Origin: Saccostrea cucullata | Lineage: Eukaryota | Assembly: GCF_032062105.1 (NCBI RefSeq) | Contig: NW_026920298.1 | Coordinates: 62,001-126,000 of the forward strand | DNA: 64,000 nucleotides | Reading direction: 5' to 3' | Part shown: positions 185 to 60,432 of the stretch, in pieces | How the letters are laid out: each line of letters begins with the position of its first letter | Position numbering within the stretch: the first letter of the stretch is position 1 | The notes under the pieces: model-generated | Told to the model about the DNA's origin: nothing | Databases searched by the model: none | What the model saw: only the letters and a program-made list of their open reading frames with translations | Position numbers and translations under genes: made by a program

Positions 185-1781
185 ATGTGTAAAATTTCAA
201 AAACTATTAAATTACATTTAATTTTCAGAGAATAAGCTCCCTGGAGTCGCAAAGAAAGGATTCTTTTGCTTCGGATGGGACCATATATGTAAATAAACCG
301 AGCAGGTCCCAATATCTCAGTCTAGGTCCTGGCACGAACAAGATCTTCCTGATCAGCTGTCATATATAAGTCTAAGTACAGGTCTAAAGAATGAAGGTGA
401 GAATGAAAAATTGAAAATTTCATAAAACTTTTATTTACTAAACCTCAATCAATTTGACGTTCGTCTTAAAATTCATTCAGATCGACTACTCTTTAAAATA
501 TGATGCACCCGTATACGGTGACATCTTATGGCGAACAGCCGAGGTCAAACTCAAATGTTAAATGTTAACAAATCAAAACTGTTAGTATTGTCAAACGGAC
601 TTGTACAATATGAAAGCCTTAGTACTAACGGATATAGTAGTAACGAATCTTTGATAACGCACAGATAAAATTTTAAAATTAATACAAGTTTGGATCTCAT
701 CTATTGTCGTACGTCAAGATCGAATTTGCGACGTAATGAATAAGTTCTTTTCGGCACTCATTTTGAATTTGATGAAACAATTAATGGAGACGCATCCCAT
801 ATAATATATAGGATTAAAAATGCAACACAATTTAACGGTGTTCTCACCCATGCATGTTTCACTTCCGCATCGTAATAACGGTGTGGACGTCTTTAGAGGA
901 ACTACTATTTTTTGTATATAGGATTTTTAAAATCCGTGTGTGTGATACACGTTTCTCAACCTATGTATCACAGTTCGTGAAAATTTTATTATTCAAGCAG
1001 ATGTAATTTTGTAACAAACTACTTTTAACATATAATTATGCATTGCATTTTCAACAAAACCTAAAAACTAACAAAGTGATGTGCTTTACTTTTATGTAAA
1101 AATGCTGTTCAAAGTGAAGTGGTTTACCTCCATAAGAATGCCGTCCCATTATTCAATAGGAGATTTGTTCATTAACTTTTAATTAATCAATATTTCTGTC
1201 AGGTTCACCTTTCCCTGCTGTCACACTGTCAATACGGTTCCTGAATGAGGACTGATAATCAGCCTCTAATTATTATTATTCCAACGTCCACGGATAGATT
1301 ATTCGTAATTAATGTCCTAAAGTTATAAATAATCTTTGGATATGACCACCATGTGGCAAAAAAATCATAAAAATATGCTGTTTGTCGCATGCAAGGCCAT
1401 TTAGGCCTCTTTATGGACATGTGCAACGTACCTTACCGACTGGTAATATTTCAAGATATTCTTAGATTAAGATTTTAATGTCATCAGATGTTCATTGAAA
1501 AAAAAAATCAGCATATGCATTACCAAGGGTTTCAAAGAAAAATATATATAAATTACTAAACATATACTCTACACGTTTCTTTTACCAAAATTGTTCAAGA
1601 AGAAGTGTTCAACACCATAAATATATAGACATTAGAATATAGCACACAATACCTTAAAGAATAAAATTGGAACTCTTCAACTCGATGGAATTAGATAAAC
1701 AAGTTCAAACTGCGAATGTCCTTAATGGTTAAGTGAGATCAATGGAATTTTTCAATGAATGAGTTTTGGGTTATAGATGAA

Positions 1782-2082: not shown

Positions 2083-3046
2083 TTAGTAGAAAGATTCATG
2101 TACACTGTATATATTTTTTTACAAGGTTGTGTTTGTCAGTTCACACTTGAAATCACGTCTGTCCTATTTAAAAAGTCACTATCCAGTTAAAAAAAATTAC
2201 CCTGTTCTTTGAATTCGGCCCGTTTTAAATTCGGCCGACTAAAAGTTGGACAAAAAGGATGAAATAAAACGGGGTATAGATATTTTCCTGTAGAAAGTAA
2301 TACTGGAAGGTATTACATTTTTCAATCTGCTAGACAGATAGAAAAATACCACATAAAATATAATTTGATTTTCAATGTATCCATTATTGAAAGAATAATT
2401 TTAGAGTAACTTTTCAAATACATATATATCGAACAAATTAAGTCAGATCTAGGAACGTCGATTAATAACTAGCTTCATAATTTTAATACCAGTGTTTTAA
2501 TGGTTATAATTTATACCTCTAATTCCAGCTCTTTTTTTAAGGAGGGGGGGTGCGGAGGATGTCTTCCATTGAAATCGGGCTTTAAGGTTAGGTTTGCGAC
2601 TCCCTCCAGGGCCATACATGTATGTATTTATAATTTTTCTTGTAAACGAATAAATGTTCATTAATTATTTTCTTATGTTTAACGCATATAAATAAAAACT
2701 ATGTCATTGTCAAAATACAATGTTCTAGTTGTAAATTCCTTTGAAATTTGTGGAAGAAATAATTATTGTTTTGTCTTTTTTTCCCTGTAACATATGCCCC
2801 CGGCCCCACACTCACCCGACGCAGCTCAAAAAAAAAACGTTGACATGAATTTGTGAAATAACAGTTCATATAATTACCTTTAACAGAGATTTTAATACTT
2901 CACGGAGAGAGAGGGTGGAGGAAGATGTTTTAAAAATATTTTCCGTTTTCATTTGATTTCTGTAGTGAAAAACATTCAAGTTTAGTTATCTCTCTTTGTT
3001 TTCCCAAATAAATAATGTTTTGTGAAAAATCATATACAAGTAATTA

Positions 3047-3620
3047 TCTTAATGGTAATATAACAACCAAGTTTTACAATAAACGTGATTACTTTAACTT
3101 TTCAATTGTCAATTTCCCTTACTTAGGCAGCAATATACCTTTGTCATCTGCATACGGAGTTTATATCTCTCATTTGATTCGATACGCAAGATGCTCTACG
3201 TGATCTATAATTTCTAAAACGAAGTAAATTATTGACTAACAAGTTGATGAAACAAGAATATCAACAGCCTCGTTTAAAGTCATCATTTTGCAAGTTCTAA
3301 CGTCGATAACAAGACCTTGTTAGCAAATATAATTTATCATTTATTCAGAATCAAATGCTGACTGACGTTTTTCATTCTAATTGTTAGACCATTCGTATTT
3401 ACACACTAAAATGCCGACGGATATTCCTGTTATATTTCCTGATCTGGACAAGGAACACACGGCGGGTGTGACCGTCAGCTGGGGATGCTCACTCCTCCAT
3501 GGCACCTGATCCCACCTCCGATGTTTTGGAGATCCGAGTTTGCTCTGCTCTTGATGTGTATTGCTTAATGGACTTTAAATTTGAACTTGAATACTGTTTG
3601 TCATCTCCATATATTTCACT
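3047..3620 (+). mobile_element. Penelope-like retroelement (Naiad-like), 5'-truncated: RT thumb + 3' UTR
   Basis: NGNITTKFYNKRDYFNFSIVNFPYLGSNIPLSSAYGVYISHLIRYAR, then a decayed ORF end and the conserved 3' motif GGCGGGTGTGACC...CTCCTCCATGGCACCTGATCCC. Confidence 0.8.
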
Positions 3621-3890: not shown

Positions 3891-4312
3891 TGACAATGTA
3901 CAAATGCTACTCACATATATTATATGAAGCATGTAATACACACATGCAGGTTTAACATCATATATGGATACATGTATTTTAACAACACGAATTTCAGGTG
4001 ATTTGAACTGGATTCAATCTCATCATGTCGATTGTATAACAATGATCAAGAGTATGAAAAGCGGCAACTCGTCTGCAAATTTGCTTGAAAGTACATATTG
4101 AGGGTTTTTTCGCAGATATGCACCGTGTTTTGATGAAAGTAGTCCAAGAATTTTCCCATTTCTCATATCGGAAAACTTTGGACTGAATGTTACTAAAAAC
4201 AAAGTGTCTTTAGTTCATAACTGCAAGCGAAAAATCACAATTCACGATATGGAGTTCAGGCTCGACAGAATAAGAAGTATAGGCATGAATTTAGTAGTGT
4301 ATTCTTACATGT

Positions 4313-4436
4313 ACTCCTCCATAGCACCTGATCCCAATTCTGATGTGTTTTGAGGTCCGTGTCTCCTCAGCTCACGATTTGCATTGCTTGAATGGACGTT
4401 GAGCTTAAATACTGTTCGTTATCTCCATGTTTCATT
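4313..4436 (+). mobile_element. Penelope-like element 3' end fragment
   Basis: ACTCCTCCATAGCACCTGATCCC...TTATCTCCATGTTTCAT matches the family terminus. Confidence 0.7.
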
Positions 4437-4473
4437 GTTCAATATGGACAACAAACAGTATTTTACTGCTTAA

Positions 4474-5027
4474 GGACAGATGGTACAAACAATTTTTTTT
4501 TGGAGGAGACTCATGTCATAAGTTTAGAAAAGTGGCTTATTCTTAAAATTTTTTCTCCTAAGAACTGGAAAATGAAATAGACATGGAAAATATTAGTAAT
4601 GTTTGAATAAAAAAACAAATATGGACAAATCACACTCAGTAAAGGTTTACAGATGAAAACAAATTTCAGAATATGTTGCCTTGGTGCTAAAAGTGTAATA
4701 TAAACTTTTATAAAATATACCAAGCCGGGTGAAATTTATGAGGAAAAACTAAATTGCAAACAATCAGCAATATCACGTAGGCTGATTTTTACCATTTTGC
4801 TTTTCCTCATACAATACACCTGGCTTGGTATATTTTTCTAAAGTTTATATTACACGCTTATAGCACCAAGTAATTTCTTTGAAATTCTAGTATTACTAAT
4901 ATTTTCCAAGTCTATTTCGTTTTCAAGTTCTTAGGAGAAAAAATTCTAAGAATTATCCACTTTTCGAAACCTGTGACATGATAAAAATCTCCTCCAAAGA
5001 AACAAAAAATGTTTGTATCATCTGCCC
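4474..5027. mobile_element. Fold-back MITE with TTAA target duplication (Kolobok-like 5'-RR termini)
   Basis: TTAA|GGACAGATG ... CATCTGCCC|TTAA. The arms are inverted copies over about 240 bp with the centre near 4770-4781. A second copy lies at 40949-41503. Confidence 0.85.
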
Positions 5028-5208
5028 TTAATTAACACCAGTGTCCATGCATGGATATCAATATTTAGCGTTCAAAATTAAAGCAATGAATTTGAAAATG
5101 ATAATGGATAACTTAGGTAAACACGTACATCATCTAATAATGCAATTTAAGGTGAATACGCGAACAAGATGAAATAACTCATAGGAATATACAGTAAAGG
5201 TAACGATG

Positions 5209-6002: not shown

Positions 6003-6254
6003 AGTCAACTGCATAAAAGTAAACAGTTGAAAGCCATACTATTTACAAAAAAAAAATGATTTATTTCTTTACTTTGGGATACCCATTTCTTATACCACTG
6101 AAGGAAATTAAATGAAACTTTAACAGAAAGTCAACTGCATAAAAGTAAACAGTTGAAAGCCATACTATTTACAAAAAAAAAAAGATTTATTTCTTTACTT
6201 TGGGATACCCATTTCTTATACCACTGAAGGAAATTAAATGAAACTTTAACAGAA
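6003..6254. repeat. Near-perfect tandem duplication, 126-bp unit x2
   Basis: AGTCAACTGCATAAAAG...AACTTTAACAGAA begins at both 6003 and 6129. Confidence 0.9.
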
Positions 6255-9204
6255 AGTGACCTCCTGTTTGACTTTTTGATTGGAGACGTATTTCGGGTTT
6301 CACATTGCAGAACACGGGCACAGCCAATCTTTATATACCCAACTCCTCTTATACAACTGGAATGGTAAGTTAAATGATACTTTCACATGTCTTCATTACA
6401 TAAAGTCATATAGTGCACCTCCTATTTTACTTTTTAATCCGACAATTTTTGGGGTTTCCTACATGTATACCAAACATGGACTTTTCCATATGCATGGGAT
6501 GCGGGTATCATTTGATGAGTCCAGTGCTCACAACACCTCTAGTTTAAACAATTATATAATCTGACACTTATTAAGAGTCAAAATCAGCAAGCATCGAGCA
6601 TTTAGTTAAAAAATGTGGAAAGTGGCATAGAAACAGATTTGGTTGAAACTCATATATAAATTTTCAGAACAAAAGGTATAATAGAAAAAAGCAAGCCAAA
6701 AATAATTTTTCGCATTGTTGCTATGGAAACCACGCGCCTTTCAAATAGCATGTTTTGTACTTTATCATGACACTTGAATTTATGGTTAAACAAATATTTT
6801 TTATTACTAGTCATTAATAAAAGCTTTTTAAATTATTATTCTATTTATCTAAAAATACTCTATTTTAACAACTGTTGATTATTGAAATTCTCTTCACCTT
6901 TTGATAAATAAAACTAGTTTTTGGAGGTTTATTTTGATTTAAAAAACAGCAAATTTGCAGTAATCTATAAGAAATCTACAACCACATTAAAGCTTATCAA
7001 CATAAAATATATATTAAACAGTATTTGTCCTAGAAGAATCAAGAAAAAAATCTGCAGGCAACTAAAGCATTTATATATGATAACTGATTTAAATCCATAA
7101 TTATCTGTCTTTTTTGCTTCAAATTACCTCCCTTTGGTATAGCTCTCTAACATAGGAGGAATAAACGGTAGTTTGCTTACATTGTTTTCAATAACAGTGT
7201 ACAGAAGACTAGAAGAAAATTACAAACTTGGAGCAGTCTGAGCCTCAGTTTTGGCGTTTTCATGAGTCTTGATTACGGTTAGTGACTGAATTTTTTACAA
7301 TTTACCATTACAACAGTTTCTGAAAAATGTATAACAAAAATTAACCATGCAGGAAAATATGTAACACTTGGCAAGTGTTTTTTTGCACATTTCAATTTAA
7401 TTCTGATTGATTATATATGTTAGCATTACTTTAGTATTTTATAGTATTTTATAACTAAAAAGAAAAGATTATGCATGGCCTGAGGAACCAAGAGGAGGGG
7501 GTATGCCCCTCCCCCTCCCCGATAATATTGCCGATATTAAACTAGAATATGATAAAATGAAATTAAATTCCCCAACTTAGATTGTTTCTGCGGGCCGAAC
7601 GTGAAAAAGTTGGTCATGATCAGTTTCATAACTGTATCCCAAATTATAAAGTTTAATTTGAATTTAGTTTAATTTTGATTTGTTGTATTCACAGCATGTG
7701 TGTAACCAAGTCACTCACCAGCTATAATGATTATAACTTGAGTGATGGTCGGGTAAAAAAAAATTCTGTATATAGTAATAGATATCTTTATTTACCATTT
7801 AAGATAATACCTGCTTTTTACATTAAAAGTTATGAATTTATGAAAATCAACACTATTATGAAATATTTGTAAAATGGAATGACTTTTGTTATGACGTCGT
7901 AAAAAAAGAAAAAGGGGCAGGGGGTTAACTCTGTACTTATTATATTTTAGTTTAGGAAAGGGGATTACCTTGGAAGTATTGTGATACAGACAAGTATATA
8001 ATGTAGTGGACTAGTTGTAACTGAATTGTATATATACCACAGTAAAATAATAAATTAAAAAAAAGGTTTTTGCTGATGTCATCCAGTGTTTACTTATGAA
8101 AGAAAATTCATATTCAGCTAACATTTTCACCGGTACCACTGAACTAATTTAAGTCAACTAGGTTCAAATAATAAGCATCATTAGAATTACAGCACATAAA
8201 TTTTTGAAAAGAATTTCTATACTATTTTTTCTTGGAGGGGGGGGGGGTTATTGGAAAGAAATGAAAACCACAATTTAGAGTTTTTACAAAACCTAGAACC
8301 AATTGACCTTTTTATTACAATTTTATAAATTTAAAGAATATTTAAATCAATACCGTCTCAACTTTGTATTGTATACTTCTGTTTTTAGAATGAAATTCGC
8401 CACTTTGAAGCCAGACTCGGAAAGAAGCAGAAACAGAATTGGATGAGCTGATATAGAATTAGACAGGAAAAACGTGTAAATAATACTTTTAGTAAAAACG
8501 TTAACTTTTTAAAATACAATGATAAAGTAAACCATTGAGATCTCTTGGAATTTAATTGATTCCAATAAACATGCTTTGCATTCATCATCATTGCTCAAGC
8601 TCAACTAGAAATGGTTCTTAGTAAGTATCTGAATACAAAGCTGTATAATATTATTACATTTTAATTTTATCACTTTTTCAGATTATCATTATGAGAATAC
8701 TTCATTACAGTACAGACCATTGATGCTGGAAGTGAGTGGATAGTGTTACCGGAGACTCAGGAATCCAGAAAATAGATCCATAAATTGTACAGTGTATTCA
8801 TGAAAGTGGATCAAATAAAAATGTTCAATCCAAAAGTAACATTCTTTGTTTGTCTGTTAGCATTTTTTTATTGATGTAAATCTAACAAGCTAATTCAGAG
8901 AATTTGTGTACCCCGCTTAGGGAAAAAGTAAACCATGCGCAATTCGGGGCGGGGTGGGGGTGGGGGGGGGGGGGGGGTCGGATCCCCCTAATTGAATTTG
9001 TAGAATTTTTAAATGTATACATGTATGCTGAAACAAATAAAATATGTCAATATTGATATAATGTTTTGATCATGTGTATAGAAGATTCTTTTTATGTGGA
9101 TTATTTATCATGAGTTTGTACAAGCTAGACCTCATAATTTTTTTCATTTCACATGCTGAATACTATCATTTAGTAAAAAAAAAGAATTTCGGAAAAGAAA
9201 AAAA

Positions 9205-9504: not shown

Positions 9505-9985
9505 AAAACAAACGGGGCGGGACACTTTGAGAGAGGTCCTAGGGAATTTTGGTATAAAATACATTGCATAAGCTCAAAATCTTCTTGAAATATCGCCCGG
9601 AAATGATAGTGTTACACACAGAGAGAATGTATAAATTTACGACCTTTAACTTTGACCTTTTGACGTCAAAATCAATAGGGGTCTTCATAAGGCCACGGGG
9701 AGTTGTTATGTAAAATTTCATTGCAATAGCTCAAATGGTTCTAGAGATACTGTGTGGAAAGGAAAGTGTTATAACAGACAGAATTTGTTTATTTATGACC
9801 TTGACCTTTGACTTTTTGACCACAAAATCAATAGAGTTCTTCTTTAGTCCATAGGGAGTAACTGTTGCTATGCTTAATTTCATTGCAAAAGCTAAGAGGG
9901 TTCTCGAGATATCTTGTGGAAACGAAAGCGTTCAAGACAGACAGAAAGACGGACGGACGGAAGGACAAACGGACAAACTCGGGAG
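9505..9985. mobile_element. Helentron-type non-autonomous element remnant nested in the TIR element
   Basis: Repeated GACCTTGACCTTTGAC units and an ACAG/ACGG microsatellite. A similar remnant lies at about 10390-10770. Confidence 0.55.
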
Positions 9986-12101: not shown

Positions 12102-13739
12102 TCCTTGAATATATTTATGTCGGAAACAGTTAACTTAATACATGTATGAGTTAAAGCTATACCAGCCAACCAGGTTTTAAGCTTGCACTTTTTGTAAAAG
12201 AAGCATGCACGTAGAAGTATATTAATTTTTAAATTTTGTTTGAATGAGATGTACGTAGTGTATGATATTTTTCTTTTTTTAAACACAGAAAATGGTTGCT
12301 TTATTTATCTATTTTATTTCATTTATTTATTTAAGTTCACAAAGTATTTTGACTAAATTTGCCGGTAAAGTGTAACTTAAACAGAGTCTATTAAAAACTT
12401 TAATTTTCATAATTGATCAACCGCTTAAGCGGGGGCGTTCTTAATGTGAATAAATGAAAATAAAACCTTCTAGTCATTCACTTGCATTATGTAATGATTT
12501 TACCATAAGGGGAAACTCTTCATTACAAAAACAAATGCCGCGAGTGTTCATTAATAATTGAATTTTTGCAATATGGCGCAATAGCTACATGTTTATAGTA
12601 GGTATCAAAGAAAATGTACGAAGGGAGAGGGCTAAATAAGGCTTTGCCTGCTACCAAATCCCATTCACTTATCTGGGAATAAAATTTTGTATAAAGAAAA
12701 AAAAAGTGTACGAAAAAATCTCCTCAATGTTTTTCTTTGCAATAAAAATAATTCTGTTTGCTTTTACAGTGCAATAGATTTATATTTTATTGCTCTCTGC
12801 AAACTTCAAGTATCTCCATATACTTCAGAATATATTAAATTATATATGTATAGTAAAGAAGCAATATTTGGAAAAAATGACGCCATAAATGACACATTAA
12901 ACTAAGCTGTGGTCATGCTTGCCTTTGCTTGCATGATAAGAAGATAGTACAGTATACATTACCAAAACAGCTTGATTCTACGAGAAAAGAAAAATTAACT
13001 TACTGAATAAACTTATGATCGAGTAATCGCATAAGTGATCAGATATTATTACTGATATCTTTATCATTATATTGATGATATTTACAATAAATATTAGCCA
13101 TAGAAGATATCAACATCGTAAGGAAGAATAAATACCTCTATATTATACGAATTACATCTACCCTTGACTGATATTTTTTTGTTAACATACTGTTGGTGTT
13201 TAAGTAATAGCATTATATGTTGTAGGCGTCGGAACCAAATTGAAAGTGTAGTACGGTGGCTATTTGAAGGGGGGGGGCTAAACAAAAAGGTAAGCCCAAA
13301 TTTTTTATGCCTATATTATGTCTAATTGTCTATCTTTGCCAGAAACAGGGGGAGGGCTAAGCCCCCTTCCCCACCCACCTTAACGCTAACTCATGTCTTT
13401 GTTGCCTGGCATTCCCAACAAACTATACGGTGATTCCTCTTATTAACATTTATAGAAGTTATAGAATTGTAAGAAAGAATCGGCCACTGACGGCACACAC
13501 AAAGTCAGCCACACGAAATTGACATGTATAATACATATCCACTGGGCTGTCTTTACACTTGACGAAATTTACATTCAGGTGCAATTGTCAAGAAAATCAA
13601 CCCATCTAGCTTCCAAAGAGGTAATTCGGAGAAAACAACTAGAAATAATATAAGTATGTTCCCAAATACCAACTTGACATGAAAAAAATGTTTTCTTACC
13701 CTTTGATGGTTAGCAATTAATTTGTAAATAAGTAATTAC

Positions 13740-13929
13740 CGTGGTTATTGGCGGCTAATACTGAGGATGAATTAGTGGCGGGCTTTTTGTAGCTGGCGGA
13801 ACTCATCGTTAATCGTCTAACATTTTTCTCAGGCTGGAAGACTATGATGTACATTTTAGGCGTGAAGAGACACACAAGGGCTACGGTCGCACTGAGACTA
13901 ATGGAAATACACAATGTTGTGATCTGTAC
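13740..13929 (-). CDS. GRM3: mGluR coding exon 3 (TM7 + proximal C-terminal tail)
   Basis: Acceptor TCTCTTCCATTGTAG|GTA at 13930/13929. Reads VQITTLCISISLSATVALVCLFTPKMYIIVFQPEKNVRRL..., the mGluR TM7 signature. Donor CAC G|GTAATT at 13740/13739 (phase 1). Confidence 0.92.
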
Positions 13930-14159
13930 CTACAATGGAAGAGAGAAAAATGTTTTTAGAAAGTAAGCACACATGAAAGTTATTGCATTTGTAAGCTCAT
14001 CGTAGTAATTAATGACCTTAGAGTACTTATGTATAACAAAGGATTTCAATGTCTGTTATTTCGAAATTGGCATGTTTCACTAAGATAAGCAAATTGCAAA
14101 AATTCATTTGTACTTGTATCAAGTAATTCAAATATAAACGTTAAACGATTTCCCTAGAT

Positions 14160-15810
14160 ACACTGATATGGATGAGAATCAAGAATGCAATGAAGAGAGG
14201 CACATCATTTATATGAAAACATTCTTAAAATCTTTATACGACCGTTCCACACGATAAATTAAAGTAGAGACATTTTAAATCATCGACAGCTGATTTTTAA
14301 GTAAAAATTGAATTGGGTAATCTGCTTATCTTGTCATTGGTCATTTGCATAAGACTTTGTTAAAAATACAACATTCTGATTTACATTCAAGTACGATGAA
14401 GTTGATATTAAATATGTCTGAATTCATTATTGTAAATATATTTGTGGTTTTTGAAGACCAGGTCTTCTAATCTGTTGGAATTCCGACAGTTACTAGTTAC
14501 CCCCGTTATCAGCAGACATACTACTATTTACATGAAGCAGAATGTATTCAAAATCTTATACATGAGAAAAAGAAAACACTTCCTGGGGCCTTGAACTCGA
14601 CAATTAGATATATCGACGACGTATTATCAGTTCAAAAATATTATTACTTATTTCTATTTGTCTGTAAACACAATACATCTCAATGAATTTGAAATTAAAG
14701 ATACCACAGAGTGAGCCACATGTTATTCATAATTTGATATTTTACTAGAAAAAAAGACGAAGATGATAACGAACAAAGCTTAATGATAAATGTGATGACT
14801 TTAATTTTCAATCGTTGACTTCCCTAACTTATGCAGTGATCATTTCATGGTTCATGTTTTAAAGTCGATACATAAATCTTGCCAACAAATATAATATATC
14901 ATTAAGTCAAATGCTGGCTGACTTCTTTCATACTAATTATTAGGCTTTTATTTACAAACTATATTGTCAAAGGATTCTCCTTTTATCTCCAGATCATGAC
15001 AAGGAACATTCGGCAGGTGTGACCGGTCGTCTGGTGAAGCTCACTCCTCCATGGCACCTGATCCAACCCTTGATGTTTTTGAGGTCCGTGTTTGCTCTGC
15101 TCCTGATTTGTATCTTAATGGACTTTTATGCTTGAATAATGTTCATTATCTCCATGATACCACATAGTCTGACACATCTGTTTCATACTTGAATGTTTAC
15201 TTGAAAAAGACGTTAATGGTAATCTAACAACCAAGCTATGTGATAAACGTGATGACTTTAACTTTTCTATCGTCAATTCCCTTATTTATGCAGCAATATA
15301 CAATCATCACCTGCATATGGAGTATATATATCTCAGTTGATTCGATACGTAAGAGCATCCTCTACCTAATATGAACAATTTCTAAAACGAGGTAAATTGA
15401 CAAGCAAGTTGATGAAACAAGAATATCAGCAGTCTCGTTTAAAGTCATCATTTCGTAAGTTCTGTGGTCGATACAATGACCCTGTCAGCAAATACAATTT
15501 ATCATTGAGTCAAATGCTGACTGACGTTTTACATACTAATTGTTAGTTCATTATTTATACACTGAATTGACGACGGATTTTTCCGTTATTTTCCGATCAT
15601 GACAAGGAGCACACGGCGGGTGTGACCGGTCAGCAGGGATGCTCACTCCTCCATGGCACCTGATCCTACCTCCGATGTTTAGGAGATCCGTGTTTGCTCT
15701 GCTCCTAATTTGTATTGTTTTATGGACTTTGAGATTGAATACTGTTCGTTATCTCCATATCCTTCTCCATGCATTGAATGCTGTTCATTATCTTCATATA
15801 TTTCATTCAT
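14160..15810 (+). mobile_element. Penelope-like element, two copies in tandem plus a short terminal duplication
   Basis: Decayed RT motifs LYTTVPHDKLK, VFEDQVF..VGIP and YIDDVLS. The first 3' end is near 15160. The second copy ends ...DVLHTNC* (TAG 15544-15546) followed by the 3' UTR to about 15770. Confidence 0.8.
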
Positions 15811-18455: not shown

Positions 18456-18770
18456 TGAAATATATAGAGATAACAAACAGTATTCCAGATGAAAAGTCCA
18501 TAAAACTATCCAAAAATAGGAGCAGACCTCCAAAACATCAGAGGTGGGATCAGGTGCCATGGAGGACTTATCATCCCCTGCCGACCGGTCACACCCGCCG
18601 TGTGCTCCTTGTCATGATCGGGTAATAACGGAAAAATCCGCCGTCAAATCAGTGTATAAATAATGGACTAACAATTGATATGAAAAGTGTCAGTCAGCAT
18701 TTGACTCAATGGTAAATTGTATTTGCTGAAAAGGTCATTGTATCGACCATAGAAATTACGAAATGATGAA
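18456..18770 (-). mobile_element. Penelope-like element 3' fragment
   Basis: Reverse complement of the conserved 3' UTR and ORF end. Confidence 0.8.
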
Positions 18771-20621: not shown

Positions 20622-21575
20622 TGAAATATATGGAGATAAGGAACAGTATTCAGGCTCAAAAGTCCATAAAACAATACAAAATAGGAGCAGAGCAAACACG
20701 GAACTCCAAAACATCAGAGGTGGGATCAGGTGCCATGGAGGAGTGAGCAACTCCTCCCGACCGGTCACACCCGCCGTGTGCTCCTTGTCATAATCGGGAA
20801 ATAGCGGAAAATCCGTCGACAATTCAGTCTTTAAACAATGAACAAACGATTGGTATAAAAAAGTCAGTCAGCATTTGACTATATGATAAAGTGTACATCT
20901 ATTTGCTGACAAAGTCATTGTATAAAAAAAACCATAGAACTTACGAATGATGACTTTGAACGAGACTGCTGATATTCTTGTTTCATCAAATTGTTTGTGA
21001 ATAATTTACCTCGTTTTAGAAATTGTACATACGTATAGTAAGCATTTGCGTACCTGCAGATGAAGACCTATATTGCTGCATAAGTAAGGGAAGTTGACGA
21101 TAAAAATGTTTAAGTCATCACGTTTATCATTGAGCCTGGTTGTTAGATTGCCATTAACATCTTTTTTCAAAGTAAGATGTGTCAGATAAAAGTATCTTAT
21201 ATCTCAAGCTCACCGGTATATATCGTATCGTCATAAGAATGGAAATAGGACATGGACAATACGTCGTCGATATATCTAAATGTCGAGTTGAAGGCCACAG
21301 CAAGTGTTTTCTTCTTTTTACATATAAGATTTTGGACAAATTCTGTGTCATATAAATAAAAAAAAATTGGTCTGCTAATAACAGGGCGCTATTGGTACCC
21401 ATAGGTATTTAAATAACTTGTTGGAAAACCTGGTCTCCAAAAACCACATAGATAATGTCAATCAGAAACTGAAGCATCTTTTTGATGCCAACTTCAGAGT
21501 AGTTGTGTGAACAATCAGAATGTTCTTTCACAAAATAATTTTTTCAAATGGACAACTGACAAAGTAAGTAAATTT
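20622..21575 (-). mobile_element. Penelope-like element, 5'-truncated, with RT motifs B and C
   Basis: IPMGTNSALL and frameshifted RYIDDVLS on the minus strand, plus the full 3' UTR. Confidence 0.82.
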
Positions 21576-24221: not shown

Positions 24222-24570
24222 AATGAAATATATGGAAATACATGAAGAACAGTATTCAAGCTCAAAAGCCATAAAACAATTACATATCAAGAGCAGAGCA
24301 AATACGGGCCTCTAAAACATTAGAAGTTGGATAAGGTGCCAAGGAGAACTGAGCATCCCCTGTCGACCGGTCACATTGCTGTGTGATCCTAATCATGATT
24401 GGGAAATAACGGAAAAATCCGTCGATATTTCGGTGTGTAAATAATTGCCTGACGATTAATATGGAAAAAGTCGCTCGGCGTTTTACTTAATGATAGATTG
24501 TATTTCCTGAGAAGATCATTGTATCGACCATAGACATACACAATGATAATGTTAAACGAGACTGTTGAAA
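24222..24570 (-). mobile_element. Penelope-like element 3' fragment
   Basis: YGRYNDLLRKYNLSLS followed by the 3' UTR motif. Confidence 0.75.
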
Positions 24571-40460: not shown

Positions 40461-40948
40461 CTAATGTTCGTATTGTGTAATTTATGTAGCAAATTCAAAA
40501 GTTTATTACCTTTTATTTTGTTTTACTAATATTCCTTAATAGGCCTTTGCATGTAATATTTTTTTTATCACAGATATAACTTTCACATGGCGCAACAGCA
40601 TTCGTCATCACAGGAAAACTTCGGGAAAAAATTTCTAGCAAAATATTCTATTTTTTTCTCTGCAAAATATATTTTATGAATATTAAGGCTTGAATTTAAG
40701 ATATTGAAGTGGTATATTAGAAATCTTAGACCACAATATATGGAAGCAAAACGATTATATATTCCTTGTTAGATTTTATAGATTAACCTTATATCAACTT
40801 GAAAGCTTATTATTTCAGTTTGAGCCCCGACTTCTAAGATTCAGCCAACTTCAAAAAATGTTTGTTAGCCCTTTTCCAAATAAGGATAAATAAATTTGAA
40901 TCTGTTATAACAAAAAAAGCTAGGGTGAAATATTTTCTAGTTTTTTCA

Positions 40949-41503
40949 GGACAGATGATACAAACAAATTTGTTTCTTTGGAAGAGACTTAATATCATGT
41001 CACAAATTTAGAAAAGTGGATAATTCTTAGAATTTTTTCTCCTAAGAAGTGAAAAATGAAATAGACTCGGAAAATGTGTATAATATTTCAATAGAAAAGC
41101 AAACATAGAGAAATCACACTCAGTAAAGGTTTACAGGTTAAAACAAATTTCAGAATATGCTATTTTGGTGCTAAATGTGTAATATAAACTTCAGAAAAAT
41201 ATACCAAGCCAGCAAAATGACAAGAAATTAGCAATATCATATAGGCTGATTTTTACCATTTCGCTTTTTCTGATAAAATTCACCTGGCTTGGTATACTTT
41301 TCTTAAGTTTATATTACACTTTTAGCACCGATGTAACATTTTCTAAAATTCGTTTTCATCTGTAAGAAAATTTGTAATTTTATTGAAATATTTATGTTTT
41401 CCACTTTTCATTTTCCAAATTTGAGAAAACATGAGAATTATCCACTCTTGTGACATGATATTAAGTCTCTTCCAAAGAAAAACATTGTTTGCATCATCTC
41501 TCC
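40949..41503. mobile_element. Fold-back MITE, second copy of the 4474-5027 family
   Basis: GGACAGATGATACAAAC ... GTTTGCATCATCTCTCC|TTAA, with long inverted arms and the same central loop. Confidence 0.85.
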
Positions 41504-42690
41504 TTAATAAAATGTAGCAATAAATTCCAAAAAAAAAAGTTTTGATGAGGAATAGCCCAAAAATTACTGAAAAAAATAATCGGCTCCTGAAGGTTTAAAA
41601 AATTACTAGTATGCCTTTATTAGTCAGCCGGTCCGGAGATGATAATTTTATTAATTTTATTTTCAAGATGAAATTTTATTTTCAAGATTTCAAAATGGAA
41701 AATTTTAAAATTTCAATGTCTCTCTAGGATAAACAGATAAGGCCTTTTCTACTTTGCAAAACGCTATCATAAATTCGATGTTTGTTGATTCACAATTTCC
41801 TCCAACTAGATATAATCGAATTTTCCGTTAAAGATCACATGGGAATTTATATCCTGAAAATTCAATCCACAAAACTATTACCCAATGCTAATAATCAGGA
41901 CGATGTTTTTAATTGTTACGTAATGGTTGAATAATTCATTGCAGTTACCTCTGATACTAATTTCTTGATATATAATGATTTTTCATTCGTTTCAAAAGTC
42001 ATAAAATGTTAAAATATAGTTGGATATTAAATTCTAATTCATGGGACATCATAACTTTTAATGAATAAATGATGGGAAAATATTCATAGTCCGAATAAGG
42101 CAGGCCAGTAATAATTTAACAAATAGACTTGTGCATGCTCTGACGTGACAGATAAGCCATAAGAGAAACATTGTAATGGAAAAACAATTTCTAATCTCCC
42201 ACCTAGCCCGAAGGAAATATTAAATGAAAAGTTGTGTCGAACGAAAAGAAATTCTGAATTTTTTCTTCCCCTCTTTCATTTTTTTTTTTTTTTTGCTTCG
42301 AGCATCAAAACTATATAAGAAAAAAAATCGCGCATCCAACTCTTTGACAGGAAATTTCATTATCATCAAATCGGCAGTACAGAAAACTCATTCTCTTCTA
42401 AGTCAATAGAAAGCCATTTTAGAAATTAACAGATTTTCTATCATTCTGTGAAGCCGAGCGCACTACTCTGATTTTGTAGATTATAACACTATTGGATCTC
42501 GATGGAGAAATAATATTTTATCTTTCAGAGATGCATGCTTCAGATGGCATTCAGGGCTAGCAGCAAAGTTCAGATGAAGTCTGTCGTGAGGTCGCATTAG
42601 CGTGACAATGAACTTCCGCATCGTAATAAACTGAATTATGGAAAAATAAAGCTTATCTTAACGTATTCTACTGCCACTTATATTACTCAC

Positions 42691-44035
42691 CGTCAAAAGT
42701 CGTATTTAGAATATAATCTCTCAAAATTTTTCCATTAATTTGACGCATTTCATCACATAAATCTTCTGTTTTGCAGGTTGCGTTCAACATTGCGTCAATT
42801 GCTCTAGCAATAGCATGTACCGCGTCATGAATAAACTGCACTTTCGTTTCTTGTTTAAATGTTGCAGATGACAGTCTTTCGCTACCATTACATTTTGGTT
42901 TATCAATCTGGTCTTGATATTTGTCTGAAAGAGAACAATTGTGTACATTTTCCCAGAATTCTGGAAACCAGGGATTTCTTTTGTTGTTAGATGGGGTCAG
43001 TGACATAAAATATCTATCAAAAGAAGGAATTAATGTAGATTGCAACTCAATCGTCAATGCCCCTTCAGCAACATCTGCATTTTGCTGGACAGGTTTTTCC
43101 TGCGTCCCCCATGCGTCACTAGCTATCCAAATAAATCTTGAGGCCACACCTTTTCGTGTCGCTGCATTTAGCAAGTTCGTTGCGTCCTCAATACGCAAAA
43201 AAAGCACCACAATTCTAGCGTTTTCTTTAGCTTTTAATTTAATAATGGCATCATCAAACGTTGATGGATTTGAATTGGACAATATTTTTATAGACTCTGC
43301 TATGCAAACATTTCGTGCCTTTGCCTTTTCTTTGAATTCGTCAATGCCCGACTGGCCGTAGTCTCCTTCTGACGCTACTGTGGACACGTATGTCCAGTTG
43401 AAATATTCCACAATATCCACAATAGCTTTAGCCTGAAAATTGTCCGGTGGAACTGTTCGGGAAAAATAATCATACCTAGCCTTATCACTCAAATCGGCGC
43501 TTGTTGAGGCATAGCTTATTTGCGGTAGCTTAAAGAGTCTCAGAAGATTTGCTACTTGAATCGAAACACTACTATACGATCCTCCTATGACTCCAGCCAC
43601 ATTTTCATACGTCACATTTGCCCTCGCTTTAGAACCATCATCACATGAGAAGTCGGACGAATCTATGGATGTAAATGATCCACGAATAAATTCTAAAGAT
43701 CGTTCTAGTGCAAACGTTCCCCGAGCGCAAGTATCGTATATTTTAGCGCCTAATTTGATCTTTGGGAGTATTTCAGGATTTTTGTTAATATTATCTATTG
43801 TGTGTAACATGGCCTCTGCTCTCTGAACTCCTCGGTCTAGATTGATTTCACCACATGCTCGGCGATCCCCGGAACTTTTCTGGTGAATAGGGAACAGTCC
43901 ACCAATAATTATGTCCCCTGGAATATAAGCCGATAATGCTTGATTCTCTGCACAAACACGCAATAAATGCACACAAAATATCACAAATATCTTTTCAACC
44001 ATAAATGTCCACAAAGGGAAATTCATCCCCATCAT
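42691..44035 (-). CDS. GRM3: Metabotropic glutamate receptor, group II-like (GRM2/3-like): coding exon 1 (signal peptide + Venus flytrap ligand-binding domain)
   Basis: ORF 42683..44035 carries class C GPCR motifs GDIIIGGLFPIH, RGVQRAEAM, GGSYSSVSIQVANLLRLFKLPQISYASTSA, RYDYFSRTVPPD, SEGDYG, ASDAWG, RNPWFPEFWE, QETKVQF and the intersubunit Cys in FSCDDGS. Glutamate-contacting R/S/T/Y/D/K residues are retained. Donor GAC G|GTGAGT at 42691/42690 (phase 1). Symbol denotes GRM2/3-like, not strict 1:1 orthology. Confidence 0.95.
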
Positions 44036-44245
44036 TTTTCAATAGTTGATTCTACCTCACTATCCATTTTTTCTCGGGTAGGTAAAGATATTACTTATAT
44101 CACTCATTCCCGCCATCTCCCAGGACTGTTGGCGAGCAAGTAAATCAATTCCTGCAGTAGTGCAGCTTTTCTCTATTGGTAATCCTTTTACTCATTAGCC
44201 GAGGCTGCTTCGGGTTATTGTGGCCCGCTCCATAATGTAGAGGAC
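44036..44245 (-). other. Predicted 5' UTR part of the first coding exon of the mGluR, containing uORFs
   Basis: Pyrimidine tract and acceptor CTTCTTTTTTAATTTATAG|G at 44246/44245. Five upstream ATGs forming four uORFs lie between it and the main ATG. Confidence 0.6.
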
Positions 44246-49939: not shown

Positions 49940-50884
49940 CACTTTTATGTCAATTGTGACACTGAGTGACAGTGGACAATCTATCTATCTATTTTCCTCT
50001 GACGGTTACTTAGTGCATCGTGTTTGGTGTATTTTGTGCTGTACGTTACATTTTAACTTTTTGAGACTGCTGAACAAATTTCAAGAAATTTTGGGATGTA
50101 TCACATTTTGGTAAAGGGAGAAAAGTGATTCTTGCTCTTAAGGGACGTCTTAAGGACTACAATTAAATAAAAACATACTCCTGTATATAAAGCAGTCAAA
50201 CATGCATGATTTTAAAAAAGGAAGAAGAGTGCCTCTCTCAAATAGTGCAATTTCTTGGCCCAGGGTCAATGTTTCTGCTGTGAGGGCAAGGTTCTATTGA
50301 TTTCATTGTGAAAATTAATTAATAAATTCTTTAAAAACCTTATCTGTTTAAGATTTTGGTGAGCTTGAAATAAAACGACTCATTTGTTTCATATCGGATA
50401 TTTTACTAGAAATTAAATGTTAATGAAAACCTAACGATAAAATTTTCTATATCCAGACAAGCTATTTACAAACAAGTTGATGAAATATGAATATCAACAA
50501 TCTCGTTAAAAGTATTCATTTCACAAGTCCTATGGTCAGTTCAATGTCCTTGCCGTTGCAAATATATCCTAATTAAATCGAATTCTGACTGACGTTTCTC
50601 ATACTTGTTGCTGCTTTATTATTTGCACCCTGAATTATCTACGGATGTTTTTCTTTTTCCCGATCATGACACAGGGGCAAACGACAGGTGTGAGCAGCCG
50701 ACGAAGGATACTTACTCCTGCAATTCAGACACCTGGTCCCAACTCAGGTGTATTGAGAAGTTTGTGTCTGCTCTGCTCACCTGATTTGTATTTTTCTAGT
50801 GAATTTTTTTAGCATGATTGCTGTTTGTTATTTTCATATTTCAATTGATTCAGGTGTTCATTAAAGCCCTTGGACCTCTTGTTT
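49940..50884 (+). mobile_element. Decayed HINE with a nested Penelope-like fragment (about 50360-50845)
   Basis: HINE-like body and 3' end TCAGGTG...GCCCTTGGACCTCTTGTTT flank a diverged copy of the Penelope-like ORF end and 3' UTR. Confidence 0.55.
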
Positions 50885-53256: not shown

Positions 53257-54445
53257 ATGAAATATATGGAGATAACGAACAGTTTATCAAGATCAAAAGT
53301 CCATAAAACAGAGAAACCACAAATCGGGATTTAACGGGAAAATCCGTCGTCAATTCATTTTATAGATGATGGACTAACAATTAGTATGAAAAACGTCAGT
53401 CAGCATTTAACTCTATGATAAATTGTATTTGCTGACAAGGTCATTATATCGACCGTAGAACTTATGAAATGATTAATTTAAACGAGACTGTTGTTTCATA
53501 AATTTGTTTGTCAATAATTTACTTCGTTATAGAACTTGTTAATACGTAGAGCATGCTCTTGCGTATCGAATTAACTGAGATATATAAACTCCGTAAGCAG
53601 GTGAAGAAGGTATATTGTTGCATAAATAAGGGATGTTGATTCTAGAAAAGTTAAAGTCATCACGTTTATCATAGAGTTTGGTTGTTAGATTACCATTATT
53701 GTCTTTTTCAAGCCAGTTATCCAAATATGAAAATGATGTGTCATATTCTGTGGTATCTTTTATCTCAATCTCACCAGGATATATCGTATCGACATAAGAA
53801 TGGAAATTACCATTGTTTGTCAATATATCTAAATGTCGAGTTAAAGGCCACACCAAGTGTTTACTTCTTTTCACGCATAAAATTTTGCACAAATTCTGCT
53901 TCATATGAATACAAAAATAGGTCTGCTAATAACGGCATGTAGATGATACGCATTATAATTCCAATAGATTGTTGGAAGCCCGGTCTCCAAAAACAACAAA
54001 GATATTGTCAATAAGAAACTCAAGCATATTTGTTATGTAACTTCAGAGTACTTGTGTTTACAATCAGATTTTTAACAAAACAATCTGCAATTGACCAATG
54101 ACAAGGTAAGGTATTTTACGAGTTCACTTTAATTGAAAAAGCAGCTGTCAATGATATCAAAAAGCCTTGACTTTAATTTGTCGTGGGGAATGGTTGTGTA
54201 TAAAGTTGAAAAGTCATAAGTTTTTAAGCTCTTGATTTTGGTTAAATCTTGTGATTTCAAATTGTTCATACGTTCCTTAGAATTTTTAAGTATCCACATC
54301 TGATTTTCACAACTTCTTGAATATATTGTTGCACAGTATTCTTAAAGTTTCTCCTTTACTACTGTTAATATCGTAGTGAGGAGTAAAGAAAAAGGCTTGG
54401 TTGAACATTTACTGTGGCCCACTTTGTATCTATGTTTGTAAGGAT
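53257..54445 (-). mobile_element. Longest Penelope-like (Naiad-like) RT fragment
   Basis: Minus strand reads KCSTKPFSLLLT..QMWILKNSKE..KTYDFSTLYTTIPHDKLKSRL (motif A) ..LYDKRDDFNF..NIPSSPAYGVYISQLIRYARACS. The ORF ends right after the thumb with no C-terminal GIY-YIG. The 3' structured core is deleted in this copy. Confidence 0.85.
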
Positions 54446-54639: not shown

Positions 54640-55052
54640 CTTCAAACGAGATTGTAGACATACGTATAATTCATCAACTAGGTTGTCAGAAGCCTGCTTT
54701 GTTTTTTTAAAAAATGCTCGTATGAAGAGCAAGCTCTTGCATACTGAATCAACTGTGAGACATTAGCCCCTATGCGGGTAAAAATGAGAATTTCCTCCAA
54801 AAATAAAGAGAAGTTGTCGATAGAAAAAGTTGATGTCCTCAGGTTTATTATCAAGTTTAGTTTAGTCGTTGGTTTGCCATTGATCTTTTTCTCCAATATA
54901 AATATCAAATATGTGACTGGCCGGCAGGGGATGCTCACTTCTCCATGGCACCTGATCCCACCTCTAAGTTTCGTGTTTGCTCTGCTCCTATTTTGTATTG
55001 TTTTATGGATTTTTTTATCTTGAATATTGTTCGTTATCAGCATATGTTTCAT
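54640..55052. mobile_element. Penelope-like inverted junction: thumb fragment (minus, about 54640-54910) fused to 3' UTR fragment (plus, about 54912-55052)
   Basis: SQLIQYARACSSYEHFLKK on the minus strand abuts TGTGACTGGCCGGCAGGGGATGCTCAC on the plus strand. Confidence 0.7.
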
Positions 55053-60237: not shown

Positions 60238-60432
60238 ATCTGTGAAAATAACGAACACTATTCAAGCTCAAGAGTCCATTAAACACTACAAAATAGGAGC
60301 AGAGCAAACCTTGACCTCCAAAACTTCAGAGGTAGGATCAGGGGCCATGGAGGAGTGAGCATCCCCTGCCGACTGGTCACACCCACAGAGTGCTCCTTGT
60401 CATGATCGGCAAATTAAGGAAAAATCCGTCGA
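60238..60432 (-). mobile_element. Penelope-like 3' fragment
   Basis: Reverse complement of the conserved 3' UTR. Confidence 0.78.

Follow-up and report, generated by a model that had tools for sequence, protein, structure and literature searches.

The window analysed here is a stretch of 64,000 nucleotides of Saccostrea cucullata DNA (assembly GCF_032062105.1, contig NW_026920298.1, positions 62,001 to 126,000 of the forward strand). It contains exons of a metabotropic glutamate receptor (mGluR) gene and, on both strands, copies of a Naiad Penelope-like element (PLE), the 3' untranslated region (UTR) of which carries a compact RNA motif. The original prediction, drawn from the window alone, had located a multi-helix core at 15596-15706 in more than 12 copies; the core is found there, and BLAST and a covariance model (E ≤ 1) each return 14 matches in the window. 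A conserved RNA fold is strongly supported by covariation between sequences of different Naiad families, and its most informative feature is a pair of palindromes that the prediction had missed. The element copies at the locus and the parts of the focal motif are as follows:

14232-15155, plus strand: older Naiad copy directly upstream, 75-78% identical to the intact element; decayed motif at 15011-15065, matched by the model
15156-15766, plus strand: 5'-truncated Naiad copy (C-terminus of the reverse transcriptase, RT, and 3' UTR), host of the focal motif; stop codon at 15544-15546; 92% identical to positions 2699-3315 of the intact element L054
15611-15616, plus strand: P1, 5' strand, pairing with 15688-15693; family-specific sequence
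15617-15622, plus strand: P2, 5' strand, CGGGUG, pairing with 15657-15662; near-invariant (one G.U/G-C pair, no two-sided change), the sequence being fixed by the search pattern
15623-15632, plus strand: palindrome 1 (10 nt), expected to form an intermolecular duplex; two-sided changes at each of its 5 pairs
15633-15636, plus strand: GCAG, with the conserved CAG before the pseudoknot loop; CAG is also in all 12 published consensus sequences examined
15637-15640, plus strand: pseudoknot, 5' strand; 4 nt here after loss of one of the 5 bases typical of the family
15641-15646, plus strand: conserved run GCUYAC; the Y/A step 15644/15645 would be the first candidate cleavage site, from a hand-judged likeness to the twister-sister loop (PMC11620745)
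15651-15656, plus strand: palindrome 2, 6 nt in this copy (range between families 6-8 nt), expected to form the second intermolecular duplex
15657-15662, plus strand: P2, 3' strand, CACCYG
15663-15667, plus strand: pseudoknot, 3' strand
15668-15687, plus strand: P4 hairpin, variable in length and sequence; two mismatches here
15688-15693, plus strand: P1, 3' strand

The focal motif begins 64 nt after the stop codon and ends approximately 76 nt before the 3' end of the element. Since the younger copy (92%) sits exactly at the 3' end of the older one (75-78%), the two are separate insertions. Across families the parts follow in the order P1, CGGGUG, a 10-nt palindrome, (R)NCAG, five pseudoknot bases, GCUYAC and a short spacer, and the 3' half continues with a palindrome of 6-8 nt, CACCYG, five pseudoknot bases, a hairpin and the closing strand of P1. 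The focal copy itself has decayed, one base of the pseudoknot loop and two pairs of the 3' hairpin being lost.

The host of the focal motif belongs to the published family Naiad_Sglo, with the consensus of which the 3' UTR of loci L055 and L056 agrees letter for letter within the motif. A search with the RT end as query recovered intact elements in the same genome, with open frames of 1,017-1,027 codons. In the single 1,027-amino acid frame of locus L053 a Pfam GIY-YIG endonuclease domain (residues 159-247, above the cut-off) lies N-terminal to the RT, which gives a weak RVT_1 match at 732-878 (E 0.0026). The Naiad translations carry PADKAGNN, with DKA in place of DKG, and CSCSS, a CxC motif; DKA and CxC are given as Naiad features in PMC8557442. 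In none of 15 RT-linked representatives (see below) was CUGANGA found with GAAA downstream of it inside the ~300 nt surrounding the motif; one of them has a lone CUGANGA. The CUGA of the oyster motif was rejected as a hammerhead strand: it is not conserved, and its last base covaries in the pseudoknot. The host is a Naiad-type PLE without a hammerhead core, as had been proposed, to judge from its domains, DKA and the missing cores. Four anchored patterns sum to at least 7,526 copies in this genome, which was searched by patterns and with the RT end, so that diverged families there may be missed; patterns for other families gave 396 matches, and the 100 listed are all of the Naiad_Sglo family. 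Adjoining one Naiad copy, at L058:3040-7894, are long open frames resembling those of a long terminal repeat (LTR) retrotransposon.

String searches of the supplement to PMC8557442 found the motif layout in at least 12 of its 54 published Naiad consensus sequences. Five of these are bivalve, two hydrozoan, four stand in the hemichordate part of the file and one is fish by table order, several of the family names resting on file order rather than on headers. An arthropod Naiad consensus entry has a more diverged version of the motif. In the same supplement Naiad-1_Chem and Naiad-2_Chem share a second GC-rich stretch of ~45 nt upstream of the motif, which could fold.

For a wider sample, metagenome contigs were scanned by a pattern in which the conserved runs alone were prescribed, so that both palindromes and the pseudoknot could vary without affecting a match; at least 122 loci were recovered. 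Clustered by their flanks, 123 hits (metagenome plus one locus of the oyster genome) gave 53 clusters among the matches listed: 15 with a Naiad RT match no more than 600 nt upstream, 22 of low GC content without such a match, and 16 of high GC content without it, which serve as the chance comparison. In the 15 RT-linked clusters palindrome 1 retains 75 of 75 pairs in 13 distinct sequences, its two central bases are complementary in every cluster (as AU, UA, CG or GC), the pseudoknot retains 72 of 75 pairs with changing letters, and palindrome 2 reaches at least 6 nt in 15/15. The chance clusters give 42/80 for palindrome 1, 6/16 for its centre, 28/80 for the pseudoknot and 5/16 for palindrome 2. 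The low-GC clusters, which were kept out of the main count, are intermediate (96/110 and 90/110 pairs; palindrome 2 in 11 of 22) because many of them are single decayed copies. The observed totals were reached in 0 of 20,000 permutations, and the permuted mean for the central bases of palindrome 1 was 4.2 of the 13 distinct sequences versus 13 observed; because the clusters are related by descent, these figures overstate independence.

An alignment of 24 sequences scored 0.626 for covariation versus 0.166 when shuffled and 0.08-0.12 when slid, and two-sided changes occur at all five pairs of palindrome 1 and all five of the pseudoknot. One misaligned column in L180 and the deletion in the focal copy were left in this alignment (A1) and lower its counts. 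The G.U pairs fix the sense strand; a minus-strand reading, which turns them into mismatches, was rejected. In L066, L141 and the Chem-1 consensus, three unrelated sequences, the pseudoknot pair adjoining P2 is A.A, perhaps a tolerated non-canonical pair.

Three helices of the prediction, ACACGG/CCGUGU, CGGGUG/CACCUG and the 3' hairpin, are present, and the pseudoknot and the outer three-helix arrangement have gained the backing of this cross-family covariation. An AGCA/UGCU stem under the pseudoknot loop, which was also part of the proposed fold, is weak: it reaches at most 3 bp across families and has no two-sided change. P1 and the P4 hairpin have wholly different sequences in different families and fold cleanly in 12 of 25 representatives, the only cases counted, since for roughly half of this set the automatic P1 finder settled on an incorrect or weak partner. 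P1 is found in 14 of the 15 RT-linked clusters and in 6 of the 16 chance clusters, a high chance rate. A P1 double-change pattern occurs in 11 genomic copies, for which there are no single-change counts to compare. For the one pair of P2 that was tested genome-wide there are 59 double changes where independence predicts ~33 (745 and 284 single changes; 6,438 copies unchanged); we do not accept this excess as evidence of compensation, as old copies collect both changes.

Prokaryote genomes gave 52 pattern matches, with 110/260 and 106/260 pairs, of which 51 behave as chance; the one full match, L280, is a 407-nt contig of a bacterial assembly with a core equal to a bivalve Naiad consensus and is probably contamination. 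The single match in the viral collection is not palindromic and was taken as chance; this site, L212 at ~1470-1610, lies within a long GC-rich hairpin on a phage-sized contig and is followed by a stretch that looks twister-like by eye and has no Rfam match. Ten loci (L066, L073, L090, L101, L125, L129, L141, L152, L162 and L180) have a near-complete motif with no Naiad RT match nearby; L090 resembles L129, L101 resembles L162, and L073 lies amid GIY-YIG and RT-like frames on the opposite strand. Loci of this kind could represent non-autonomous or simply short copies, and non-animal eukaryotes may be the source of some. The short contigs around 12 loci, of which 10 lack an RT match, showed no retrozyme-like tandem arrays.

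The palindromes are what suggests a dimer. Neighbouring central bases cannot pair within a hairpin and yet stay complementary, so pairing between two strands is implied, and in 25 representatives the palindromes are worth approximately 0 to -2.6 kcal/mol as hairpins versus -3.7 to -21.4 as self-duplexes. A role in RNA rather than as a DNA-binding site is indicated, because the palindrome sequences change freely and tolerate G.U. On this comparative evidence we think it very probable that two RNA copies pair through the palindromes. The position of the two palindromes on either side of a conserved middle suggests a symmetric dimer in which that segment would be shared or swapped.

Structure could not have been demonstrated from the window alone, because single copies fold like shuffled sequence (z between -1.0 and +1.0 in six of seven window copies) and the focal copy is decayed. 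The core had been called the best-preserved part of the copies; at 0.87 identity to the intact element it does rank first, by a slight margin over the end of the open reading frame (0.85) and the rest of the UTR (0.81-0.83). None of the 13 window copies checked has the full fixed pattern, and variation among the window copies is mostly decay. This applies to the three hairpin variants cited in the prediction, which are in the sequence as described and lose their value as evidence. The CAGGUGU/ACACCUG helix of the 50.7-kb copy, which folds better than its shuffles (z -3.3), is likewise present and is weak evidence: the palindromes of this copy are broken, and it has no relative above 76% among 39 other matches scored, for which reason its standing as a separate subfamily was rejected. 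The 53.3-kb copy lacks the core, as noted before, through a deletion. All window copies share the orientation of their flanking RT fragments. The mGluR exons and the other copies in the window are:

42683-44038, 36035-37171 and ~13720-13935, minus strand: mGluR exons
3460-3514, plus strand: motif copy with a deletion in palindrome 1
4312-4330, plus strand: motif fragment, 3' part alone
18545-18600, minus strand: motif copy, sense in the mGluR intron, GCUYAC broken
20721-20776, minus strand: motif copy, sense in the mGluR intron, with an altered CAG and one pseudoknot pair lost
24327-24375, minus strand: motif copy, sense in the mGluR intron, P2 broken
29921-29976, minus strand: motif copy, sense in the mGluR intron, palindromes broken
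34107-34162, minus strand: motif copy, sense in the mGluR intron, palindrome 1 broken and a double change in P2
34928-34983, minus strand: motif copy, sense in the mGluR intron, several lesions
50682-50741, plus strand: old, strongly diverged copy without a close relative
53322-54445, minus strand: Naiad copy with the motif deleted
54912-54960, plus strand: motif copy truncated within P2
56143-56198, minus strand: top-scoring motif copy of the window (covariance model, 59.1 bits)
60333-60388, minus strand: motif copy, decayed

The mGluR intron between the last two exons is ~22 kb long and holds eight motif copies. Six of these (18.5, 20.7, 24.3, 29.9, 34.1 and 34.9 kb) lie sense to the gene between exons at ~36.0 and 13.9 kb, in agreement with the prediction, and the focal copy is antisense. 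Two copies of a ~570-bp element with long inverted termini, resembling a miniature inverted-repeat transposable element, are found at 4470-5035 and 40945-41511, and short tandem arrays with periods of ~166, 156 and 126 bp at 31115-31657, 9542-9946 and 6003-6257, respectively.

An upstream partial copy, the partial tandem (pLTR) arrangement, is present at 26 of 30 full-length Naiad starts, and 20 of the 30 include the whole motif; the head-tail junction is nearly identical in all 28 cases listed. In G000:C22741:105777-112584 three element starts 3,313 nt apart form a full-length head-to-tail array. The Naiad templates clearly run past the head-tail junction, without a common upstream boundary, which fits circles or long read-through RNAs. 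For 32 of 34 young copies outside tandems, the 3' end maps between -2 and +7 nt from the junction, a position ~76 nt downstream of the motif. A second conserved hairpin is located at the 5' end of the Naiads (L054:3600-3677 and L149 at ~470-560, minus strand, outside the window), with fixed internal strands CUGCUGGUG and CCCGAG and an outer stem of family-specific sequence that is still paired. It may mark the start site of the RT, because in a tandem RNA it is located where the 3' ends of copies map.

What the motif does is less certain than its fold, and we put at about an even chance the reading that it is a dimer-gated self-cleaving RNA which replaces the hammerhead in Naiads. In a read-through transcript of a head-to-tail tandem, motif copies one unit apart would pair via both palindromes and exchange or share the intervening segment (CAG, pseudoknot strand and GCUYAC), thereby completing an active site. 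Cuts at both copies would release one unit, which could circularise; the RT would then start near the element 3' end and copy past the head-tail junction, giving partial and full tandems, and a lone copy in a host intron would stay uncut. By analogy, fixed junction bases amid freely covarying helices have the look of ribozyme cores. Penelope hammerheads occupy the same terminal repeats, a palindrome lets their tandem copies fold as dimers, and circular templates have been proposed for them, cleavage with circularisation being offered as the explanation of head-to-tail insertions (PMC4209133, PMC6765202). Two other published Naiad consensus sequences have CUGANGA...GAAA near their 3' ends instead (PMC8557442 supplement). 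The six sense copies had been held to argue against strong constitutive cleavage; this argument loses force because all six carry lesions and because a ribozyme that depends on a dimer would be inactive in a single copy. The fullest version, a new ribozyme class formed as a symmetric domain-swapped dimer on two palindromic struts, which would cut only tandem transcripts and release unit-length circles, with thousands of copies per genome in cnidarians, molluscs, hemichordates, fish and possibly non-animal eukaryotes, is put forward tentatively and falls somewhat short of an even chance.

Several results weigh against self-cleavage by a dimer. On the side of the fold, besides the common descent of the clusters, the search pattern itself accounts for part of the invariance of CAG, GCUYAC and P2. 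P2 is near-invariant, with no two-sided change across families; an alternative GGUG/YACY pairing fits as well, and 745 genomic copies have one P2 pair broken versus 6,438 unchanged. Cofolding of the whole motif gave the dimer no clear advantage over shuffles; the signal was inconsistent, as long helices are exchanged by the algorithm and pseudoknots are left out of account. On the side of catalysis, none of the known catalytic cores fits the motif in Rfam, core-string and feature tests, and the tandems are equally well explained by read-through transcripts. Among 143 distinct 5' truncation points no site occurs more than twice and no cut end is recorded in the genome. Poly(A) reads from three runs cover the motif hundreds deep, and their ends do not accumulate there; with a threshold of 96% identity a small accumulation of read ends (6 molecules, one run) appears near the edge of the stretch and is not repeated at the second copy. 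The RNA libraries are fragmented and look unstranded, and the reads over the motif come mostly from short passive copies, because depth at the element 5' end is ~2. For a proven Penelope hammerhead RNA-seq likewise lacks ends at the cut, and cleavage is dispensable for insertion in vitro (PMC11167929).

The best of the other explanations, which we consider possible and less likely than a ribozyme, is a non-catalytic signal for dimerisation or protein loading. The palindromes would hold together two element RNAs or tandem units, the surface of P2 and CAG/GCUYAC would be bound by the Naiad RT-endonuclease, and the RT would start near the 3' end and could switch templates. The covariation evidence for a dimer serves this explanation identically; a helix of fixed sequence suits protein recognition, neither the truncation points nor the RNA reads show a cleavage footprint, the 3' ends of young copies are tight (32/34), and a Penelope protein has been modelled as a dimer that starts internally on its RNA (PMC11167929). 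The motif does not act as a ruler, however, its distance to the 3' end being ~75 nt in oysters and ~190 nt or more in two hydrozoan consensus sequences. Moreover, the 5' hairpin at the presumptive RT start in a tandem RNA is the better match to the AC-rich start stem-loop of Poseidon (PMC11167929), and other Naiads have hammerhead-like cores in their tails.

It is improbable that the motif is a monomeric regulatory fold, concerned with translation, RNA stability, 3' processing or, at the DNA level, an internal promoter, with the palindromes as tiny hairpins or protein sites. Such a role would suit the position of the motif, which in 20 of 30 tandems precedes the start of the next unit, the site of the Penelope promoter (PMC8557442), and the outer pairs of the palindromes could close 3-bp hairpins with 4-nt loops. 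Against it, the Watson-Crick complementarity of the central bases throughout the RT-linked clusters would be useless to a hairpin loop, the hairpin energies are near zero, and palindromes that differ freely and tolerate G.U argue against a DNA-binding site. That the motif has no function at all, being a GC-rich patch with chance helices under mutational decay, as the shuffle-like folding of the window copies and the double changes near the independence expectation within the genome might suggest, is scarcely credible: between families all 10 pairs that make up palindrome 1 and the pseudoknot have changed on both sides, the motif is kept in animals as far apart as hydrozoans and fish while its flanks cannot be aligned, and the controls are flat.

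A self-cleaving RNA would belong to none of the known classes compared here. Comparison with Rfam gave no match to the core, either in 6.9 kb of window sequence (E ≤ 5) or in 20 loci (E ≤ 2), which applies to the twister, twister-sister, HDV-like, pistol and hatchet classes. HDV-like ribozymes (after hepatitis delta virus) are built on a nested double pseudoknot that includes P1.1, with a catalytic C placed between P4 and P2; in the 12 of 25 representatives of the motif that fold cleanly, the closing stem comes immediately after the hairpin and a joining strand is missing. Pistol ribozymes have a hairpin-loop pseudoknot, a GCG joiner and a GU cleavage site between P3 and P2, and their topology is similar; both junctions of the motif lack unpaired bases, and a loose pistol string occurs in 3 of 15 clusters. 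Twister ribozymes have a double pseudoknot from L4 to L1 and L2 and an N/A cleavage site in the P1-P2 loop. In the motif a single pseudoknot covaries, four hand mappings (one on the minus strand) gave no cleavage loop between P1 and P2, and the twister loop strings looked for are absent from 15/15 clusters. Mapping by hand also led to the rejection of the hairpin, hammerhead, pistol, hatchet and HDV ribozymes. A selenocysteine insertion sequence (SECIS) was rejected, as the frame is open without stops (no in-frame UGA) and a loose AUGA-AA-GA string occurs in 1 of 15; the earlier statement that neither an HDV signature nor a SECIS is present agrees with these feature tests. The hatchet secondary model, with four stems P1-P4, two internal loops, cleavage 5' of P1 and no pseudoknot (PMC6561176), has a different architecture.

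Twister-sister was tried with GCUC/A facing GCNAG and two stems: on 24 sequences this register is 90% paired with covariation not above shuffles, the facing G is absent in 5/24, and there is no second stem. Its loop is nonetheless the closest local likeness, from which the Y/A cut site is guessed, and it fails on the facing strand and the flanking stems.

The element is already known; its RNA fold appears undescribed, as had been suspected. The Naiad paper (Craig et al. 2021, PMC8557442) notes that canonical hammerheads are missing, mentions some 'HHR core' strings and records SECIS in four families; the available part of it does not describe the fold, though at least 12 of its 54 consensus sequences contain it. 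Nor was a description found in the accessible parts of the literature on Naiad and Penelope ribozymes and dimers, most subscription journals being outside this coverage. The novelty is in the fold, not in its host. The motif combines ribozyme-like anatomy and a built-in signature of dimerisation with a match to no known class, and only about ten natural classes of self-cleaving RNA are known and natural RNA oligomers are rare. It bears on how Naiads, which are dominant in bivalve genomes, form head-to-tail tandems without a hammerhead. Even a motif without cleavage activity would represent a type of dimerisation or RT-loading signal unreported for the retroelements closest to telomerase.

Among known systems, retroviral dimer initiation sites are likewise self-complementary and bring together two genomic RNAs of a reverse-transcribing element; the motif differs in having two palindromes, which flank a pseudoknot, at the 3' end of a non-LTR-type element without capsid. 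With twister (PMC6154101) it shares a compact pseudoknotted fold, and the helix order partly matches by hand, with the palindromes at the optional P3 and P5. With the twister-sister and TS-like ribozymes of LINE-1 and OR4K15 (PMC11620745) it shares GCUYA facing (G)CAG, which resembles the catalytic-loop strands down to the variable base before A. It departs from them in that the facing strand lacks one base by comparison and conserves its G in only 19 of 24 sequences. Where twister-sister has two stems, the two runs of the motif border a single pseudoknot strand, and the base that follows A is C, a variant reported to be almost inactive in the LINE-1 ribozyme (PMC11620745). From the Penelope-like hammerheads (PMC6765202) it differs by the absence of CUGANGA/GAAA, by two palindromes (10 and 6-8 nt) instead of one short one, by a 5-bp pseudoknot and by a helix of fixed sequence. 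It resembles them in its location in terminal repeats, in its occurrence in many families with covarying stems, and in a palindrome that would pair tandem copies as in the minimal PLE hammerheads, so that the two have the strategy in common and not the core.

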